Shown: in pieces, positions 9,265 to 16,523 of the stretch
How the letters are laid out: every line of letters starts with the position of its first letter
Numbering within the stretch: position 1 is the stretch's first letter
Source of the DNA: an uncultured virus (IMG/VR IMGVR_UViG_3300005512_000016)
Taxonomy: Duplodnaviria; Heunggongvirae; Uroviricota; Caudoviricetes
Reading direction: 5' to 3' (one strand)
Length of the DNA stretch: 20,000 bases
Virus record (IMG/VR): IMGVR_UViG_3300005512_000016
Coordinates: 52,077 to 72,076 of that record
Position numbers and translations under genes: made by a program
Notes under the pieces: model-generated
Told to the model about the DNA's origin: nothing
What the model saw: only the letters and a program-made list of their open reading frames with translations
Databases searched by the model: none

Positions 9265-10649
9265 TAATTACCCCTCACTATGTTAAACTTTCGTGCATAT
9301 AGACCTTGTACAACTTCTCTTATTGTATTAGTTACTAGTATATCTGGATTACGTTGACTTTCAATTAAGCTTTTATATATAGGGTCGTAAAAAAATCTAA
9401 TAACGTTAGCTTTATAACTAGGTAAAACTGCAACACTACTTCTAAATCTTCCAGTTCTCTCAGTAAGTATGGTTGGAGATAGGGGAGGTCCTCGCTCAGG
9501 TCCTTTAGGCATTATCGCTCCAAGTCTTCTTTGGACTAGAGCAGATAGTTGAGCGCCAGAAATAAACTTTTGTACAGAGTCTTTCTTAGCTTTTCTCTTC
9601 CTTACTGCTGTCATTCCAAAATTTTGTTTACTAAATCGTGGAGATTCTACAACAGTGCGAATAGTAAAAGGTGTTAACCCCCCTTTTTCAAATTCCTTAG
9701 CAAAGGCAACTATCAAGGATAAGTATTCATTTACCGCATTTGTTTTTTTAACCTCATTCGGTATTTCTTGGACTATTAAATAGTTTAATAGCCCTTGTGA
9801 AAATTTTATACCATTTGCTTTTAAATGAGCTTCATTAACTTTTTGAGTTAAGTCTCTAACACCTTTTTCCATGTCTGCAAAAAGTTCTGCAGTAGGTTTA
9901 ATTTCAATTCTATATTTATCAGCGGCACTAGATGAACTTTTTATTTTTATGGATATTTGAAAGTATCTTGAAAATATCTTTTGATCTTTAAAAACATTTG
10001 ATGAAATATTTTGAAGTGGATTTGTAATAAACTTAAATATAGGTTTATTTTGTTTTTCAATATCAGCAGTATCAACTACTAATAAGTTTGCAAACTTAAC
10101 TCTAGCATTTAAAAATAATAAGTTTCTAAAAGGAGTTAGCTCCTTACCAAATAGTGCATTGATAGCATCTTGACCAAAAAGTTGTTTTCCTCCAACAGCT
10201 GATTTAATAAGTTGACCCTCTGGCTTATTTAAACTTCTACTAATAGCTGTAATTGCAGGCTCGGCTGCTCCACCAACACCTTTAACTTTAGTTTCATAAG
10301 CACTTGGTAACGTTATCTTCTCTCCAGTATTAGATTTAAGCGCATTTATCTCTGAAAGTCTAAAACCTGCAGTAGCCTCAAATTCATCAGCATCAACAAT
10401 AGCATCAGCTATAGCTCCTCCTGATACTCCGACAGACTCAAATATTCTTCTTGCACCAGATTTTGCATCTTTAGGCATACCCAGCCCAATACCCATTTGC
10501 TCTGATATGTAATCAGATACACGACCAATTAAAGTATTTCTTAGTTGCTTAAGTTCTTGTGCTTTTTTACTACGAAGTCCAAAATTTTCATCTACTTTAC
10601 CGTTAGGAAAGGTAGTCTTTACAATACCAAGGTTAAGATTAGGAGCCAT
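9264..10649 (-). CDS. Tail completion/neck protein, T5 p143-like C-terminus with an enlarged N-terminal part
   Basis: Synteny between the head-completion and tail-terminator genes. The basic C-terminus (LTERTGRFRSSV...YDPIY...RNPDILVTNTIREV) resembles p143-family proteins. Confidence 0.7.
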   Translation of the reverse strand: MAPNLNLGIVKTTFPNGKVDENFGLRSKKAQELKQLRNTLIGRVSDYISEQMGIGLGMPKDAKSGARRIFESVGVSGGAIADAIVDADEFEATAGFRLSEINALKSNTGEKITLPSAYETKVKGVGGAAEPAITAISRSLNKPEGQLIKSAVGGKQLFGQDAINALFGKELTPFRNLLFLNARVKFANLLVVDTADIEKQNKPIFKFITNPLQNISSNVFKDQKIFSRYFQISIKIKSSSSAADKYRIEIKPTAELFADMEKGVRDLTQKVNEAHLKANGIKFSQGLLNYLIVQEIPNEVKKTNAVNEYLSLIVAFAKEFEKGGLTPFTIRTVVESPRFSKQNFGMTAVRKRKAKKDSVQKFISGAQLSALVQRRLGAIMPKGPERGPPLSPTILTERTGRFRSSVAVLPSYKANVIRFFYDPIYKSLIESQRNPDILVTNTIREVVQGLYARKFNIVRGN

Positions 10650-11986
10650 TAGATAACAATCCTATAAAGGTCCAATATACGTCTAATATGTGGGGGAAAG
10701 TTTCCTGCAAGATTAAACTTATCTCCTCGTTCTCCCTCAAAACTAAAACCTTTTTTATCTTGATCTTGTTTATGAAATAATTTAATCATATCAAGAGTAG
10801 CAACTTGAAGATCATAAGGAACTTGTCCTGATTCATATCCTCCACGATATGTTACTTTAACTCCGCTAGGATAAGGTTGAAAAGTAGGTGGCCCACTTAG
10901 TGTAAGTGATGGATAAGATCTATTAACAGTTGGATAATTACCTGTAATGCCTATGTCACCTGTATCTCTAGTAATTTCTCCACTGTCTCGTGAAAAACTG
11001 TATTGATTTATTGCAGCGCTAACATCTTTAGCTTCTGTATCTCCATTTTTACCATCAAAATGAATTAACATTCGTGTTTGTTCATCAGGTCTAAATCTTT
11101 GTGATGGGGGAGTAAAGTCTCCTGAATATCTTGCAGTATCGCTAATTCTTAATTCGTCAATATACCCTGCAAAGTCGTTACCTATAAGCACGTTTGTTGT
11201 AAAAGTATTGTTATTTACAGCAAATGTTTCACCACTGGCTCCTGTAATATTATTCCCATTATAAGTTAAAAACATTCGTTGAGAAACACTATTAAAAGAT
11301 GCAGCTACATGTGCGAACTCTCGTTGTCCAAATTGCTGTGTTTGAATAAGTGTGTTAGCACCAGTAACTGTTGTTGTGCTTCCACTAATTGTGCCATCAA
11401 TTTTTAAACCACTTGTTCCATTTGTAGAAAATTTTAAAGAATTTGTCGCGTCTGTGTTAATTGAAAACAGCTCCTGTACAGGTAAACTCGAGTCATTAAC
11501 ACGAATAAACATCTCAATGGTAAAATCACCCTCTTCAAATTTTATATCTTCAGATACTGTACCTTCTACAAAGTCTGCGGATGCCACCTCTAAACTAGAT
11601 TTTCCAAATCTTTTAACTCTTGAATTAATATGAGCGTCATTCTTAAAGGTAAGAGTTACACTATCATTATCTTGAACATTAGGCATACCATTAGTCGCGG
11701 GATCGTCAAGAGTCATATGCTCTATACCATTAAACTCTGTTACTTCGTAGACATTACTAAGAGGCAATCTATTAACAAAAACGCTTGTTTCGCCTCCGTC
11801 AAAAACTTCAACATAATCATTAGCTAAGACTTGTTGTCCGATATAGTGTTCAACAACTCCTGTGGCATAACTTATGATATTACTAAGAGTACCATCATGA
11901 GTAGTGCTATTAATACTTAAATAACTTTTTACTTGTGGCAACGTTACATACGGATAACGACCAAGCCCCTCTTCATGTCTATCCAT
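10649..11986 (-). CDS. Head completion/head-tail adaptor (T5 p144 / HK97 gp6-like) with an inserted LamG/ConA-like domain
   Basis: N-terminal YVTLPQVKSYLSI...IISYATGVVEHYIG and C-terminal GVKVTYRGGY..VPYDLQVATLDMI...FPPHIRRILDLYR are adaptor motifs. aa ~110-323 are LamG-like (RFGKSS, GDFTIEMFI, FAHVAAS, FAGYIDELRISDTARY). Confidence 0.85.
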   Translation of the reverse strand: MDRHEEGLGRYPYVTLPQVKSYLSINSTTHDGTLSNIISYATGVVEHYIGQQVLANDYVEVFDGGETSVFVNRLPLSNVYEVTEFNGIEHMTLDDPATNGMPNVQDNDSVTLTFKNDAHINSRVKRFGKSSLEVASADFVEGTVSEDIKFEEGDFTIEMFIRVNDSSLPVQELFSINTDATNSLKFSTNGTSGLKIDGTISGSTTTVTGANTLIQTQQFGQREFAHVAASFNSVSQRMFLTYNGNNITGASGETFAVNNNTFTTNVLIGNDFAGYIDELRISDTARYSGDFTPPSQRFRPDEQTRMLIHFDGKNGDTEAKDVSAAINQYSFSRDSGEITRDTGDIGITGNYPTVNRSYPSLTLSGPPTFQPYPSGVKVTYRGGYESGQVPYDLQVATLDMIKLFHKQDQDKKGFSFEGERGDKFNLAGNFPPHIRRILDLYRIVI

Positions 11987-11997
11987 CTATCAATCCC

Positions 11998-12219
11998 CTA
12001 TTTCTTAATAGTAATTTTTTTAACAGATTTTTTTACTTCTGGTTTAATTGTTGTGGCAACTATAGGTGCTGGAGTAGCTTTAGGTGCAGGAGTAGCCATA
12101 GCATCCCAAGCTTCTTTTTGTTGTTCGATAAGCCCAGGACCCCAACCATGTTTAGAAAGCCATTTCTCAGCTTCATCCCATGATTTCATATCTTTAATTT
12201 CTGTTACAATAGTAGTCAT
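11998..12219 (-). CDS. Small hypothetical protein with a Pro/Ala linker and Lys-rich tail
   Basis: 73 aa, strong SD AAGGAG, and it fills the gap between the capsid terminator and the adaptor gene exactly. Confidence 0.75.
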   Translation of the reverse strand: MTTIVTEIKDMKSWDEAEKWLSKHGWGPGLIEQQKEAWDAMATPAPKATPAPIVATTIKPEVKKSVKKITIKK

Positions 12220-12231
12220 ATCTATTCTCCT

Positions 12232-12265
12232 TAAATAAAAAGGGGAGGCTATCCACCTCCCCCTT
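12232..12265 (-). terminator. Rho-independent terminator after the major capsid gene
   Basis: mRNA AAGGGGGAGG-UGGAUAG-CCUCCCC-UUUUUAUUU: GC-rich 7-8 bp stem plus U-tract, about 27 nt after the capsid stop. Confidence 0.88.
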
Positions 12266-12291
12266 GATTAGTTCTACATTATTAGTTAAAA

Positions 12292-13698
12292 TTAACCAGT
12301 AATGTTCATAACTGCGTAAGAATACTTAGCTGCATCTAGTGCGTTATTTGAGTTAGTTGTTAACGGTCTAAAGTCAAAACGTGTGCTCATATACATTGCT
12401 GTAACTTGCTGTCTTGGCTCGTACTCGCTCTCGATCTCCATACCACGTCTTTCAGCGATTAAGAATCCAGGCTTATACACTAGCATACCAATATGTCTGC
12501 TAGATCCACCAACTACGTCTAAGAATTCAGTGATCTGGATTGGTATACCATACACTGCACCAACAGAACCTGTTAGGTAAGTAGCGTTTGGTCCAAATTT
12601 ATCAACTGTTCTAAAGTCTGAAGTTTGAACTAAGTTATTATAACCTTCAATAGTGGTTAGATATACTAACTGGTCACCAAGTTGAAGACCATATTTACCC
12701 ATTGAACTTCTTGCACCTGCGATATCAGTTGGGTCAACTTTATCGTTAGCACCGCCAGTTGCTACTGTAAGAGAAGCATCTGCTGCTAAGTTAGTTAAAC
12801 CTTCGATAACTGAAGCATAACCTGTACCTGCAGTAATTGCGTTAGTAGGTGATGCTGTGAAGCCAGTTAATGCGCCTGTACCTCTAAGTATTGATTTATC
12901 AATAGCTCTTGCAAGACGTCTAGTAGCTGCTGCTCTTAGGAAGTCAAGCAATGGAAGAACTGTATCTTCCTCTTCATCTTTTGCAAGATGAGTAGTTGCC
13001 ATAAACTTATGAGGTGTGAAGGTAACAGCTGAGATTGTATTTTGGTTTGTAGTAGGTACGTTAGATGCATCTGCAATACCTGTTGCAAATGTGCCTGACT
13101 TAAACTGTGCTACATCTCCGTCTGTATCTTCATCAGCTACTGGTACTCTAAAATTTCTAGCATCCACTGCGATTCTTTCGAACATTGGAGCAATAATTAA
13201 TTGCTGCTCCATCTCAGTGTAGATGTTTGAAGAAAAGTTAGAAAGGAACTGATCTACAGAAGTGATCGCCTTCATTCTTGAACCGTATTTAGTATCAAAT
13301 ACGTCTCGCTTATTCATGCACTTGGCAAGTAAATAAGCATTTGCCATTTCTTTCTCTGAGAATTGAGAAGTTTTACGACTATTTTCTTGATAAGTCATTT
13401 TAGATTCAGTTAATGATTTAATCTGATCCTTAAATGTTGAGATCTGAGCCTTAAGTTCATCAACTTCCGCTGATTCCTTAGGTGTATACGCAGTCTCTCT
13501 TCTGTCTTGAGCGTCAGCCTCTTTCATCATTGCTTCACCAGTTTTCTCCACTAGCTTAGCAACTTCTGGCTCTGACACTTCTGCTTTTACAACTGGTTGC
13601 TCTTGAGCTTTAGTTGCTTCAGCTTTTTCGATCTCTTTCGCTGCACCTTTTGATGCGGACGTAAGGTCAATAGGAGTATCGATATCCTGGTTTGCCAT
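12292..13698 (-). CDS. Major capsid protein precursor (468 aa, HK97 fold with delta domain) from an internal in-frame start at Met399
   Basis: AAGGAGG (13713-13707), 8 nt, ATG (13698). Size is close to T5 pb8 (~458 aa). VFDTKYGSRMK/AITS matches the pb8 maturation-site region as recalled. HK97-fold motifs RRLARAIDKSILRG and GSVGAVYGIPI. Confidence 0.8.
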   Translation of the reverse strand: MANQDIDTPIDLTSASKGAAKEIEKAEATKAQEQPVVKAEVSEPEVAKLVEKTGEAMMKEADAQDRRETAYTPKESAEVDELKAQISTFKDQIKSLTESKMTYQENSRKTSQFSEKEMANAYLLAKCMNKRDVFDTKYGSRMKAITSVDQFLSNFSSNIYTEMEQQLIIAPMFERIAVDARNFRVPVADEDTDGDVAQFKSGTFATGIADASNVPTTNQNTISAVTFTPHKFMATTHLAKDEEEDTVLPLLDFLRAAATRRLARAIDKSILRGTGALTGFTASPTNAITAGTGYASVIEGLTNLAADASLTVATGGANDKVDPTDIAGARSSMGKYGLQLGDQLVYLTTIEGYNNLVQTSDFRTVDKFGPNATYLTGSVGAVYGIPIQITEFLDVVGGSSRHIGMLVYKPGFLIAERRGMEIESEYEPRQQVTAMYMSTRFDFRPLTTNSNNALDAAKYSYAVMNITG

Positions 13699-14892
13699 TT
13701 TGGTTTCCTCCTTGTGGGAATTTTCGTGAAGCTGAGAGGTTTCGCTCTTAATTTCTTCACCTTTTGATTTTTTAATGTTGTTAACGTCAACATCTAACGT
13801 ATTATCACAACTATTTCCGTCAGCGTCAACCTCTAAAAATTTAAAAGTTGGCGATTGGTCGGTTGCAATTTTAGTCACTTTGTAGGTTTTTCCGTTTAAT
13901 TCTACAGTTGCACCATTTTTGACTAATTCTGGTTCTTGCTCTAAAAGATTGATAAATGGAATCTCTGCATTAGGATCTCTAATCTCAAGTTCTTCTTCAT
14001 CATTTTCTTTTTCAGCTTCAGTTTCTAAATCGGTTTTTTCTTCCGAAATTACCTCTTCATTTTTATTCTCTGTAACCTCAGCACCTCTTGTTTGAGAAGC
14101 CATTTCTTCAGAAGGACTTAAAGGTCTTTCGTCAGAATCTTCTTCAGCCATCTCTACAGATGAGTCATGCACAGCAACAGCACTAACTGTCATAGAATGT
14201 TTATGACCTTTAGCTTCCATTATCTCATACCCCTCTACTTTATGAGAGTGGTTTTCCATATGAGAAGCATAAGTTGTAATTCCATTACCATTCTCATCTA
14301 CTTCTAAAGTATGATAATGGCCATCAATCATATCAGTTATGCCTGCTTTTATGTATGCTTTAGTTTGTTCTTTGTCCTCAAACTGTTCAAGAAAAGATTT
14401 TCTCTCATCATCTGAGTTAAAACTTTTGCTAATGCTAAATAATGAATCTTGATTACAAGGCACACTAACAACACTAATCTCTAATAATTCAACATCAGTT
14501 ATTGTCATTGTATCGTCTTCGCGATTATATTTACCATCTTTAACTTTAAAACCAACGCTGAAACTTTTTAAGGCTCCATCCTTGATAAGGGTCTGTACCC
14601 CGTGATTCTTCTCTGCTGCTTCACTGACGGAAGCTTCAACAAAAATACCTTTTTTATCAACTTGTATTTTGTTAACATTACCTATTGGGCAATCGTGTTT
14701 ATGTTGATAGAGAAGAACAGGATTACGTCTAAAGTTATCTACGCCTTTAGCCCATGCATCTGCAGTTATAACATCACCTGCACGGTCTTTAGCAGTAGTA
14801 TTTGCATAGCCAGCAATTTTAATTGACTTAGTCTTTTTATTAAATGACTTAGCTTCTAAAACGCTATTTAAATAAAACTTTTTATCGTTCAT
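12292..14892 (-). CDS. HK97-type prohead protease (peptidase S78) fused in frame, through a ~240-aa linker, to a T5 pb8-like major capsid protein
   Basis: Protease motifs IAGYAN..KDRAGD, NPVLLYQH64, KSFS112VGF and LLE138ISVVSVPCNQDS. No stop codon before the capsid part. SD AAGGAGG at 14902-14908. Confidence 0.92.
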   Translation of the reverse strand: MNDKKFYLNSVLEAKSFNKKTKSIKIAGYANTTAKDRAGDVITADAWAKGVDNFRRNPVLLYQHKHDCPIGNVNKIQVDKKGIFVEASVSEAAEKNHGVQTLIKDGALKSFSVGFKVKDGKYNREDDTMTITDVELLEISVVSVPCNQDSLFSISKSFNSDDERKSFLEQFEDKEQTKAYIKAGITDMIDGHYHTLEVDENGNGITTYASHMENHSHKVEGYEIMEAKGHKHSMTVSAVAVHDSSVEMAEEDSDERPLSPSEEMASQTRGAEVTENKNEEVISEEKTDLETEAEKENDEEELEIRDPNAEIPFINLLEQEPELVKNGATVELNGKTYKVTKIATDQSPTFKFLEVDADGNSCDNTLDVDVNNIKKSKGEEIKSETSQLHENSHKEETKMANQDIDTPIDLTSASKGAAKEIEKAEATKAQEQPVVKAEVSEPEVAKLVEKTGEAMMKEADAQDRRETAYTPKESAEVDELKAQISTFKDQIKSLTESKMTYQENSRKTSQFSEKEMANAYLLAKCMNKRDVFDTKYGSRMKAITSVDQFLSNFSSNIYTEMEQQLIIAPMFERIAVDARNFRVPVADEDTDGDVAQFKSGTFATGIADASNVPTTNQNTISAVTFTPHKFMATTHLAKDEEEDTVLPLLDFLRAAATRRLARAIDKSILRGTGALTGFTASPTNAITAGTGYASVIEGLTNLAADASLTVATGGANDKVDPTDIAGARSSMGKYGLQLGDQLVYLTTIEGYNNLVQTSDFRTVDKFGPNATYLTGSVGAVYGIPIQITEFLDVVGGSSRHIGMLVYKPGFLIAERRGMEIESEYEPRQQVTAMYMSTRFDFRPLTTNSNNALDAAKYSYAVMNITG
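13801..13829 (-). promoter_or_regulatory. Candidate sigma70-type promoter inside the fusion linker, facing the internal capsid start
   Basis: TTGACG (13829-13824), 17-nt spacer ending in TGn, GATAAT (13806-13801); about 100 nt upstream of the internal ATG. Confidence 0.65.
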
Positions 14893-16153
14893 CTACTGTT
14901 TCCTCCTTTGGATTATCAGACTCTTCTTCAGGAGGTCTGCCTCCTTGAGTAGCGTCAGTCGCGCTACCTGTAATATTTTGTGGTACCCTAATGCCATCTT
15001 CTCCCTCGATTCTGGGTAACCTTAAACCTTTTCTAGCTTCATTAGGTGTCATAATGCCTGTGTTTACTAATTGTGCATAGTAAGTAGACTCTGTTCTCAT
15101 CTCTGGTCTTAGAGCAGGAATGGTCATTTTATCAGGTCTTATTTCTACTCCACCGTTAAAAAAATGCATGAAAGCGCTACAAAACTGATTTAATATCGGT
15201 AATATTGTGTGCTGATAAAAAAGCTTTTGATTAGCATCTATATTAGCATTATTACCAGATTTTAAAAGCACGTAAGGAACTCCAATTGCTTTAGCAATAT
15301 CTTGTTGGATTCTTTCAACACTATTTTCAAAGTCTAGTTCATCAAATTTCACATTTGAAAACTGATCTATCTTTAATCCTCCATCTAGTATAGCTGGATT
15401 TCTCGCGTTGTCAAAAATAGTTGTGTAGGAATTTCTCCAGCTCTCTAAAAGTCGCTCTTTTACTCTTTTACTTAAAATACTGTCTGTTGTCAGTACGAAT
15501 CCTGGAACTGCGTTGTTTTTGAAAAATTGCCTCTGAAAGTTGATAAGATAAAAGTAAACCTCAAGTAAACGTTTAATAGACTTAAGCTTACTAGTTCCTC
15601 TAAATATGCTTAGCTCATTCTCATTCATTACATGTATTATTTCATAAGGTTCAAAAACTATTGATTCACTTTTTGTGGTAGTTTTATTAAAATTGTAAAA
15701 ATCTTGAGATTGCTGGTTTGAAATTAGATAATTGTACTGCTTAACAAATGCTCGTTCATCAGGAACAACTTCAACATCATTAGCTGGTAATAGATATAGA
15801 TCATTTCTATCATAATAGAAAAATACATTACCATCTAGAAAAAAGTCTAAAAAAGCTCGTCTAAATAACCTAGCTCTATCCTCAAAAGGATTAGGTCTAT
15901 AGTTAAGTAACTTATTAATTTTTTTACTAGGAGAACCTCCCTCTACTAATAATGGAATTTCGGTTAAAGCGTTAATGCACATCTCAATTGATCTATTTAC
16001 TATCTCAACTTCACGATACGCTTGTTCAAAGTCATGAGTATTTTCAGGACTTGCATATGGTTCTAAAGCAGCAATAGATGGCTGAGCAGGATTTAGTTTT
16101 TCAGATAACCATTCTCTCCACGCGGGCACTTGTTTTTGTTGATTATTTGCCAT
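14882..16153 (-). CDS. Portal protein (HK97 family, T5 pb7-like)
   Basis: Motifs EKLNPAQ, LLNYRPNPF, DFFLDGNVF, FFKNNAVPG, IAKAIGVP and LVNTGIMTPNEAR; 423 aa; synteny. Confidence 0.95.
   Translation of the reverse strand: MANNQQKQVPAWREWLSEKLNPAQPSIAALEPYASPENTHDFEQAYREVEIVNRSIEMCINALTEIPLLVEGGSPSKKINKLLNYRPNPFEDRARLFRRAFLDFFLDGNVFFYYDRNDLYLLPANDVEVVPDERAFVKQYNYLISNQQSQDFYNFNKTTTKSESIVFEPYEIIHVMNENELSIFRGTSKLKSIKRLLEVYFYLINFQRQFFKNNAVPGFVLTTDSILSKRVKERLLESWRNSYTTIFDNARNPAILDGGLKIDQFSNVKFDELDFENSVERIQQDIAKAIGVPYVLLKSGNNANIDANQKLFYQHTILPILNQFCSAFMHFFNGGVEIRPDKMTIPALRPEMRTESTYYAQLVNTGIMTPNEARKGLRLPRIEGEDGIRVPQNITGSATDATQGGRPPEEESDNPKEETVDER
15387..15414 (-). promoter_or_regulatory. Candidate sigma70-type promoter inside the portal gene, facing the protease-capsid ORF
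   Basis: TTGACA (15414-15409), 16-nt spacer, TATACT (15392-15387). Confidence 0.4.
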
Positions 16154-16523
16154 TTTTTTCCTTTTGAATATCTAACCAATTTTTAATTTTAGAGGCTAGA
16201 TAGTTTGGATACCTTTGTCCATATAATGTATGCAGTCTTATGTGATGAGTTTTACAGAGAGTGTATAAGTTTTTATTTGAAAGGTTATCTTTTTCATCAG
16301 TTGCAAATTTTTCTCTAAGCTGATTAATAGTTTCAACATTATCAATATCACTAATCTTATTAGAAATACACCATTTATCAAATAATTCACTCAAGCCGTA
16401 AAGATGATGAAGCTCTAAAGTTTCTTTACTGCCACACACGTAACACTCGTCACGAATTTTGTAATCTTTTTTAATAAAATCTCTAATGTATTTTATTGGA
16501 AATCTTTTTAATGATGTCATCAT
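16143..16523 (-). CDS. HNH endonuclease (T5 nicking-endonuclease / terminase-associated HNH-like)
   Basis: CYVCG....LELHH and TLCKTHHIRLH zinc/HNH motifs; positioned between terL and portal as in T5. Confidence 0.85.
   Translation of the reverse strand: MMTSLKRFPIKYIRDFIKKDYKIRDECYVCGSKETLELHHLYGLSELFDKWCISNKISDIDNVETINQLREKFATDEKDNLSNKNLYTLCKTHHIRLHTLYGQRYPNYLASKIKNWLDIQKEKNGK

Follow-up and report, generated by a model that had tools for sequence, protein, structure and literature searches.

In phage heads, few protease copies stand against hundreds of shell subunits, and the usual explanations for this ratio are separate genes or nested protease/scaffold genes. In lambda C/Nu3 and Mu I/Z, the product of an in-frame internal start is a free scaffold, with a separate gene for the capsid protein, while in herpes simplex virus UL26.5 has its own promoter within UL26. 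A "tripartite capsid gene" of Gifsy-2 was also reportedly described by Effantin and colleagues in 2010. For gp17/gp17.5 of the archaeal virus HFTV1, nesting has been demonstrated by ribosome profiling, initiation-arrest profiling, and liquid chromatography-tandem mass spectrometry, and lambda and herpes simplex virus 1 are named as other nested protease/scaffold cases in the accessible part of that preprint (bioRxiv 10.64898/2026.09.13.751334). Furthermore, going by the accessible parts of the sources, protease-capsid fusions have been annotated in Arthrobacter phage clusters AM, AU, and AN and in Rhodococcus phage RRH1 (PMC5513430), a fusion of S78 protease and major capsid protein has been described in thaumarchaeal proviruses (PMC6563490), and fusions are annotated likewise in several genome announcements. 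Here, we analyzed a gene of this kind in an uncultured tailed virus (Caudoviricetes), namely an 866-codon open reading frame (ORF) that lies within positions 52,077 to 72,076 of IMG/VR record IMGVR_UViG_3300005512_000016. This stretch of 20,000 nucleotides (nt) is called the window hereafter, and all positions are counted from its first letter unless stated otherwise.

Fused genes of this type look paradoxical, since they imply one protease per subunit, and they are annotated as single products. A first-pass annotation of the window had proposed that the fusion gene hides a nested capsid transcription unit with its own promoter, ribosome-binding site, and terminator, and had suggested that the conservation of the fusion, of the internal ribosome-binding site, and of the promoter be checked in orthologues. 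At the level of sequence, our analysis supported that interpretation. Comparison across diverged relatives shows that selection holds both the long frame and all of the signals of the short unit. It is likely, in our judgement, that the gene is read two ways, giving an 866-residue chain and, from the nested unit, a 468-residue capsid precursor, with the long chain being a minority, protease-carrying subunit. Most of the shell protein is probably made alone, with few copies bearing the protease.

The predicted nested start, promoter, and terminator

The full-length ORF (12292..14892, minus strand; TAA at 12292-12294) encodes a protease, a linker, and a capsid precursor in 866 codons and contained no internal stop, as had been claimed for it. 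The nested ORF (12292..13698, minus strand) starts at Met399 (ATG at 13698-13696) and has its frame and stop in common with the long ORF; it would encode a capsid precursor of 468 amino acids (aa). An internal Shine-Dalgarno (SD) sequence, AAGGAGG, is formed by codons K394, E395, and E396 (13707..13713, minus strand), 8 nt before the ATG. The AAGGAGG-N8-ATG arrangement of the first-pass annotation was thus present, with the SD at 13713-13707 and the ATG of Met399 at 13698-13696. AAGGAGG occurred eight times in the whole viral record, and five of these copies precede the start codon of an ORF of at least 40 aa.

Conservation of the junction between linker and capsid precursor was analyzed in a scan of viral contigs, in which 281 relatives were found and 78 loci were retained. 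As observed, [A/G]AGGAG-N9-ATG was present in 74/74 loci holding the junction, the other 4 of the 78 beginning downstream of it, and Met399 was invariant in 63/63 aligned sequences. K394 was fixed as AAG and E395 as GAG, codons that account for 37% of Lys and 33% of Glu in these genes, respectively. The check in orthologues therefore found both the AAGGAG core and Met399 to be invariant.

An internal sigma-70-type promoter is predicted at 13801..13829 on the minus strand. It consists of a -35 element TTGACG (13829-13824), a 17-nt spacer, and a TG-extended -10 element TGTGATAAT (13809-13801), and this is the TTGACG-N17-(TGn)GATAAT promoter that had been claimed at 13829-13801. Immediately upstream of it is an A/T-rich stretch, TTTAAATTTTTAGA. 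When the strict pattern TTGAC-N15-17-TG-N-[TG]ATAAT was searched for in the 72,076-bp record, the only occurrence was this site. The hexamers were kept in orthologues as well, namely in 69/69 loci reaching far enough upstream, with TTGAC-N18-GATAAT in 65 loci and TTGACG-N17-AATAAT in 4 (the L046-L049 clade); five junction loci end too early for a promoter call. Hexamers and spacing are fixed, whereas the spacer varies, as do some of the residues encoded there (V355 to I; C362 to R, L, V, G, or S). A better-scoring site inside the portal gene (TTGACA-16-TATACT, 15414-15387, minus strand, 11/12 matches) was used as a control and was kept in only 3/16 representatives checked, which were the three closest. 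Chance alone is indecisive within the window; the features were judged to be above chance because they are conserved in relatives.

Synonymous-site constraint was scanned across 26 representatives of less than 90% DNA identity (minimum 61%, median 67%) in 778 seven-codon blocks. The mean fraction of synonymous differences was 0.483 (standard deviation 0.093). The block holding the SD and ATG (codons 393-399) showed a fraction of 0.083, ranking first of 778 (z -4.3), and the -35 and -10 blocks showed 0.113 (rank 2) and 0.146 (rank 5), respectively; the start of the ORF, which overlaps the portal gene, showed 0.183 (rank 13). Altogether, 39 of the 40 lowest blocks fell within residues 340-402 or 1-9. 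Similarly, codon entropy was zero in just 11 of 404 degenerate columns with a conserved residue, and 7 of these 11 codons were Q346, L353 (TTA, six-fold degenerate), D356 in the -35 element, D363 and N364 in the -10 element, and K394 and E395 in the SD. Recombination cannot be the cause, since variation in the gene peaks in the stretches that separate the conserved elements. These results indicate that the predicted internal promoter, the SD, and the ATG are under selection at the nucleotide level.

We infer that transcription from this promoter starts near 13794, and the predicted 5' leader of the nested transcript (13699..13794, minus strand) would then be ~95 nt long and is also read in frame as linker codons. 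The folding energy of the leader was -23.3 kcal/mol (z -2.19). Two of its segments, GTGAAG (13760-13755) and CTTCAC (13731-13726), can pair in a 6-bp stem, and both were present in 19/26 representatives. RNAalifold, run on the region upstream of the SD, gave just a four-pair CUUC:GGAG helix of -0.5 kcal/mol, and covariation was absent from it. The GTGAAG/CTTCAC pair was rejected as an RNA element; CTTCAC encodes the Leu-His of the protein motif L-x-L-(H/Y/F)-G-(Y/H), which persists in distant relatives.

At the other end of the unit, the terminator that had been claimed after the stop codon was confirmed as an intrinsic terminator (12229..12265, minus strand) with an 11-pair hairpin (12265-12239) and a T-run. 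A G+C-rich hairpin and T-run followed the capsid stop in 25/25 representatives with downstream sequence, and both arms of the stem showed changes. The SD (AAGGAG) and ATG (12219) of the next gene begin inside the T-run of the terminator (12219-12240), so the downstream head-completion genes would depend on read-through or re-initiation.

The strengths of the two start sites were then compared by SD energies, scored against a generic anti-SD sequence. The mean energy was -6.5 kcal/mol for the first start, where it was variable, and -9.2 kcal/mol for the internal start, where it was nearly fixed, and the internal SD was the stronger one in 23/24 representatives. The SD of the full-length ORF in the window is AAGGAGGAAAC (14898..14908, minus strand, 11 nt). 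The first-pass annotation had pointed out that these 11 nt are shared by the two ribosome-binding sites, and the identity was indeed seen at 14908-14898 and 13713-13703. It is confined to the close clade of the window, however, the first-start SD being weaker and variable in the other 23 representatives, and the sharing was rejected as a functional feature since it is clade-specific. The portal gene (14882-16153, minus strand) overlaps the fusion ATG (14892-14890) with its 3' end by 11 nt, and the portal stop commonly overlaps or abuts the ATG of the long ORF in relatives. Because of this overlap, translation of the long ORF is probably coupled to that of the portal gene.

The fused frame and its protein domains

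The segment from the -10 element to Met399 spans 34-137 codons among the 26 representatives and is hypervariable with many indels, yet it was stop-free in 26/26 of them. Base shuffles of the segment were open with a mean probability of 0.031, so that 0.8 open frames would be expected against the 26 observed, indicating that the frame between the promoter and the ATG is open by selection and not by accident.

A word-indexed protein search gave 773 matches, and both Pfam domains were found in 120/120 of the relatives listed (64-100% identity, 766-979 aa). In the viral contigs, an ORF of at least 800 codons was present in 62/78 loci, and the majority of the remainder were truncated at contig ends; four more loci, first taken for protease-only, proved to be fused. 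As for the check on whether orthologues keep the fusion, L034 was the only exception among the relatives seen; in this contig, a single in-frame TGA gives 420 + 602 codons. This TGA stands right after the -35 element (TTGACTGA; L034:4124-4131, corresponding to 13829-13822 of the window), where the nearest relatives have TTA, and the promoter, SD, and ATG are retained. Either a sequencing error or a naturally split form of the gene may account for it.

Furthermore, 1.84 billion representatives were searched exhaustively, yielding 12,259 matches, 192 of them at E <= 1e-30. The protease-then-capsid layout was very common among the relatives of the protein found in this search. The best 150 of the 12,259 were mainly fused, and two sorts were seen among them: one with a long linker (787-1006 aa, 49-66% identity, 15 proteins) and a second, large class with 29-38% identity and lengths mainly of 577-753 aa.

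For the long-linker sort, 44 complete relatives at ~50% identity were fetched by profile. When the internal in-frame ATGs were ranked by SD, the junction ATG came first in 24 of them, second in 18, and third in 2; where it was outranked, the stronger ATG lay farther up the linker. The promoter motif was found no more than 520 nt upstream in 32/44. Another linker methionine, Met264 (14101-14103), follows a conserved "RPLSP.EE" and, in several clades (L174-L224) where it outranks the junction start, is preceded by GAGGAGG, a very strong SD. As a second start in the present phage, Met264 was rejected, being Met in 17/63 aligned sequences, with high synonymous variation around it (ranks 651-749 of 778).

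The distant class of ~640 aa was represented by 58 complete ORFs (54 unique, 39 representatives) at 29-38% identity. An in-frame ATG leaving 400-500 aa was found in 38/39 representatives, and this junction ATG had the best internal SD in 31/38, compared with 6.0 expected. GGAG, GGAA, or GAGG is retained there although the encoded residues change (KE, LE, QE, ME). A nested translation start thus looks general for fusions of S78 protease and capsid protein, and the predicted nested promoter is, by these comparisons, a feature of the long-linker lineage. Taken as one, the wider picture, in which an embedded capsid unit with a promoter overlapping codons would supply a Gag-Pol-like minority subunit and the nested junction start would be general across hundreds of tailed-phage lineages, is in our judgement evenly poised between right and wrong.

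The long chain begins with a prohead serine protease domain (residues 24-176; 14365..14823, minus strand), which equals a whole T5-like protease, as it spans the entire 198-aa protease of Klebsiella phage Sugarland at 49% identity. Peptidase_S78 (PF04586) matched residues 21-155 in Pfam with 77.1 bits (cut-off 21; E 2.3e-21), and PHROG 80, head maturation protease, was matched at 1.1e-33. H64, H66, S110, and S112, the candidates for the catalytic His and Ser, were invariant among 28 relatives, and the corresponding His/Ser columns were invariant in alignments A3 and A4.

At the other end of the chain, residues 399-866 are colinear end to end with the stand-alone 460-aa capsid precursor of Sugarland (27% identity; residue 30 of the query stands opposite residue 29 of the Sugarland protein). 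Because of this colinearity with a whole stand-alone T5-like precursor, Met399 is taken to be the ancestral capsid start. The precursor opens with a scaffold-like N-terminal delta domain (~residues 399-545, end approximate; 13258..13698, minus strand). Here, residues 399-550 aligned to the N-terminal region of the T5-like precursor and were predicted to be helical at a predicted local distance difference test score (pLDDT) below 60. The HK97-fold capsid domain follows (residues 552-847; 12352..13239, minus strand), where Phage_capsid (PF05065) matched with 51.5 bits (cut-off 24.2; E 1.3e-13). A full-length AlphaFold2 (AF2) model was poor (mean pLDDT 41.2) and served only for secondary-structure hints.

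Between the two enzymatic and structural parts lies a linker of ~220 residues that has no counterpart in T5. It was modeled by AF2 on a 38-sequence alignment (mean pLDDT 69.8). Its first part is a His-rich beta module (residues 179-238; 14179..14358, minus strand; GHYHT...H..NH.H...GH.H) of near-invariant residues with a pLDDT of about 87-95. It looks like a metal-binding site without a known family, and it gave no Pfam match and no fold match. The acidic part that follows (residues 239-310; 13963..14178, minus strand) had a pLDDT of 33-73, varies in length among relatives, and is probably disordered. The third part is a small four-stranded beta domain (residues 323-373; 13774..13926, minus strand; pLDDT 75-90), whose codons carry the predicted promoter and whose strands are 151-154, 157-163, 171-177, and 183-191 in linker-model numbering. 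A fold search with the linker against the PDB gave nothing at E <= 0.001, the best E being 0.38 with weak SH3/KOW/Sm-like rows, and a search of the ESM Atlas gave no usable match.

As for the genome setting, the window is the final 20 kb of the linear 72,076-bp record, which is estimated to be 64% complete; genomes of the clade are ~110 kb and have a T5-like head module. The genes of interest are all on the minus strand and form a siphovirus-type structural module. Upstream are the large terminase, two small ORFs (one HNH-like), and the portal, and after the fusion gene come a 73-aa ORF, a 445-aa adaptor-like protein, a 461-aa ORF, and the tail genes for the tail terminator, the major tail protein, two chaperones, and a 1482-aa tape measure. 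The HNH-endonuclease similarity is weak and belongs to the small ORF at 16143-16523 (minus strand) between the terminase and portal genes. The 445-aa protein (10649-11986, minus strand) has a repeat or immunoglobulin-like "virion structural" region at residues ~105-327 and a C-terminal head-tail adaptor domain (PHROG 442); it is an adaptor that is greatly extended at the N-terminus.

Two proposed products and the rival explanations

In the long reading, translation would start at 14892, coupled to the low-copy portal gene, and would yield the S78 protease, the 220-residue linker, and a complete capsid precursor. In the short reading, the internal promoter would give a transcript with the ~95-nt leader, the SD and ATG of Met399 would be used, and the 468-residue precursor would be made up to the shared stop, with the terminator closing the unit. 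The short product would be the bulk shell subunit. The long product would be the scarcer subunit; its capsid part would join the shell during assembly, and the protease would thereby enter the prohead at an inward-pointing N-terminus. In delta domains of the HK97 type, the N-terminal end lies toward the interior. After assembly, the protease would remove the linker and itself along with the delta domains. The ratio of the two initiations would set the number of protease copies per head.

Several observations weigh against this two-product reading, including those given with the rival explanations below. A consensus scan of 11500-16500 found 13 promoter-like sites, compared with 16.1 +/- 4.5 in shuffles, indicating no enrichment. 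The promoter is located within the conserved, folded beta domain, so its conservation is partly at the protein level, and only the synonymous signal is specific to DNA. In the window itself, the two SDs are equal (first -11.6, internal -11.4 kcal/mol, both AAGGAGG), and any excess of the short product must therefore arise from the promoter and from coupling. The shift in codon bias between the two halves is weak (effective number of codons 41.2 vs 38.8); it is in the expected direction and was not used as support. Finally, the use of sigma-70 promoters and SDs was deduced from the gene starts of the phage itself, and a search for the host by way of prophage relatives in 185,579 species genomes gave 66 pattern matches and zero true relatives.

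The rival that survives best is nesting at the level of translation only, with Met399 as a start on the long mRNA and the TTGAC...GATAAT block as some other DNA or RNA element or as a block constrained otherwise. The SD and ATG are universal over three families, and the promoter motif, for which the search covered the long-linker lineages, is missing or degenerate in 12/44 distant long-linker relatives (including one clade, L165-L169 and L225, and L187, L193, and L207; L185 has TTGACC-N17-GAAAAT). The distance between promoter and ATG also jumps from ~100 to ~400 nt between clades: those of 960-1030 aa have an extra domain of ~95 residues exactly between the promoter and the SD, giving a leader of 384-411 nt (L011, L016, L017, L019, L022, L027, L030, and L033), and the leader of the others is ~100 nt. 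This explanation does not account well for a block whose hexamers, 17-nt spacing, and TG extension (in most clades) fit the sigma-70 consensus and in which synonymous sites are fixed as the spacer varies. Nothing else in the 72 kb matches the strict pattern, the unit ends in a conserved terminator, and the nearby chance site is unconserved. On balance, translation-only nesting seems rather unlikely.

It is also conceivable that both products are made and that the long chain is no shell subunit; it would free the protease by cleaving itself ahead of assembly or outside it, or would enter solely through delta-domain contacts, and the fusion would then serve co-expression instead of covalent delivery. 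The free protease of HK97 is targeted by its C-terminal tail, which counts in favor of such a scheme, and so does the linker stop of L034, which if real would make the tether dispensable. Frame continuity is strongly selected, with 26/26 open segments against 0.8 expected, and makes little sense if the covalent link to the capsid precursor is unimportant; we regard this scheme as quite improbable.

A third explanation is that the full-length polyprotein is the only product, and that an ancestral, separate capsid gene left the internal promoter, SD, and ATG behind as relics. Relic signals would be expected soon after a fusion if Met399 is the ancestral capsid start, and annotations treat such fusion genes as one product in the accessible part of the literature source (PMC5513430), as do the protein names supplied by one source. 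Relics decay, yet the signals here are invariant at synonymous sites while the lineages differ at 48% of synonymous comparisons elsewhere. Furthermore, 220-330 linker residues now stand where the ancestral genes were separated by an intergenic gap, and the junction signal recurs in a family that is just ~33% identical. A pure polyprotein with relic signals is accordingly a very improbable account. The last alternative, that a stop codon was lost through an error of assembly or sequencing and that there are truly two genes as in T5, could call on the in-frame TGA of L034 (420 + 602 codons), but it is hardly credible: the frame is uninterrupted in hundreds of contigs and protein clusters, which come from several sources and were assembled independently, and the linker encodes conserved, confidently folded modules.

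Selection for the fused frame together with the internal promoter, SD, and ATG, as the two-product reading has it, would resolve on paper the paradox of one protease per subunit. For annotation, this means that hundreds of such genes probably conceal a second product, and the presence of the junction signal in a ~33%-identical family suggests a general rule. The gene would also be a clean example of a promoter code and a protein code that overlap under dual constraint. For capsid engineering, it is of relevance that the N-terminal tether would point into the prohead.

Comparison with known systems

Near-identical DNA was not found among cultured phages. The best cultured relatives were T5-like Klebsiella phages (Demerecviridae), with 1150 records, all below 60% identity, and none of the 1150 covered at least 80% of the query in one piece. 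In the cultured Klebsiella records listed, the match splits over two features, variously named protease and capsid. The order of portal, protease, and capsid is common to the window and the T5-like phages, and a terminator follows the capsid gene of Sugarland too. In contrast, the protease and capsid protein of Sugarland are encoded by two genes 13 nt apart without a linker, whereas here they form one frame.

The proposed arrangement resembles lambda C/Nu3, Mu I/Z, UL26/UL26.5, and HFTV1 in that a protease is at the N-terminus of a long chain and a shorter in-frame chain shares its C-terminus. UL26.5 also has an internal promoter of its own, as proposed for the present fusion gene. The protease types are different, S78 here compared with lambda C (ClpP/S49-like) or herpes assemblin. 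In lambda, UL26, and HFTV1, the shorter product is the more abundant one, and the common part draws the protease into the procapsid; the same is proposed for the present gene. The nested product of those systems is a free scaffold, whereas in the present gene it would be a 468-aa chain of delta domain plus HK97 fold. Since this product is the capsid precursor itself, the long product would be a protease-bearing shell subunit. The first-pass annotation had stated that nested starts in protease genes yield scaffold rather than capsid, which fits the accessible part of the HFTV1 preprint (bioRxiv 10.64898/2026.09.13.751334). Nevertheless, the logic is nearer to lambda C/Nu3 than this implied, because the nested product begins with a scaffold-like delta domain.

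The annotated fusions, as far as their accessible descriptions go, likewise have an N-terminal protease and a C-terminal major capsid protein in one ORF. They differ in that the accessible parts describe a single gene, with an internal start or promoter unmentioned in them (PMC5513430, PMC6563490). The present clade also differs from them, as compared by description only, in a linker of 220-330 residues with folded modules and in its ~110-kb genome with a T5-like head module. Full-text searches covering part of the literature found no published statement of a nested capsid start or promoter in a protease-capsid fusion.

In the retroviral Gag/Gag-Pol pair, a minority capsid chain carries the protease into the particle, and gene expression fixes the ratio through a frameshift or read-through at the 3' side. 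The likeness to the present gene would be one of working principle only, without homology, as here the ratio would be set by alternative initiation and the protease is N-terminal. The gene combines two known kinds, the fused protease-capsid gene and the nested protease/scaffold pair, and the nested capsid precursor would be the new element.

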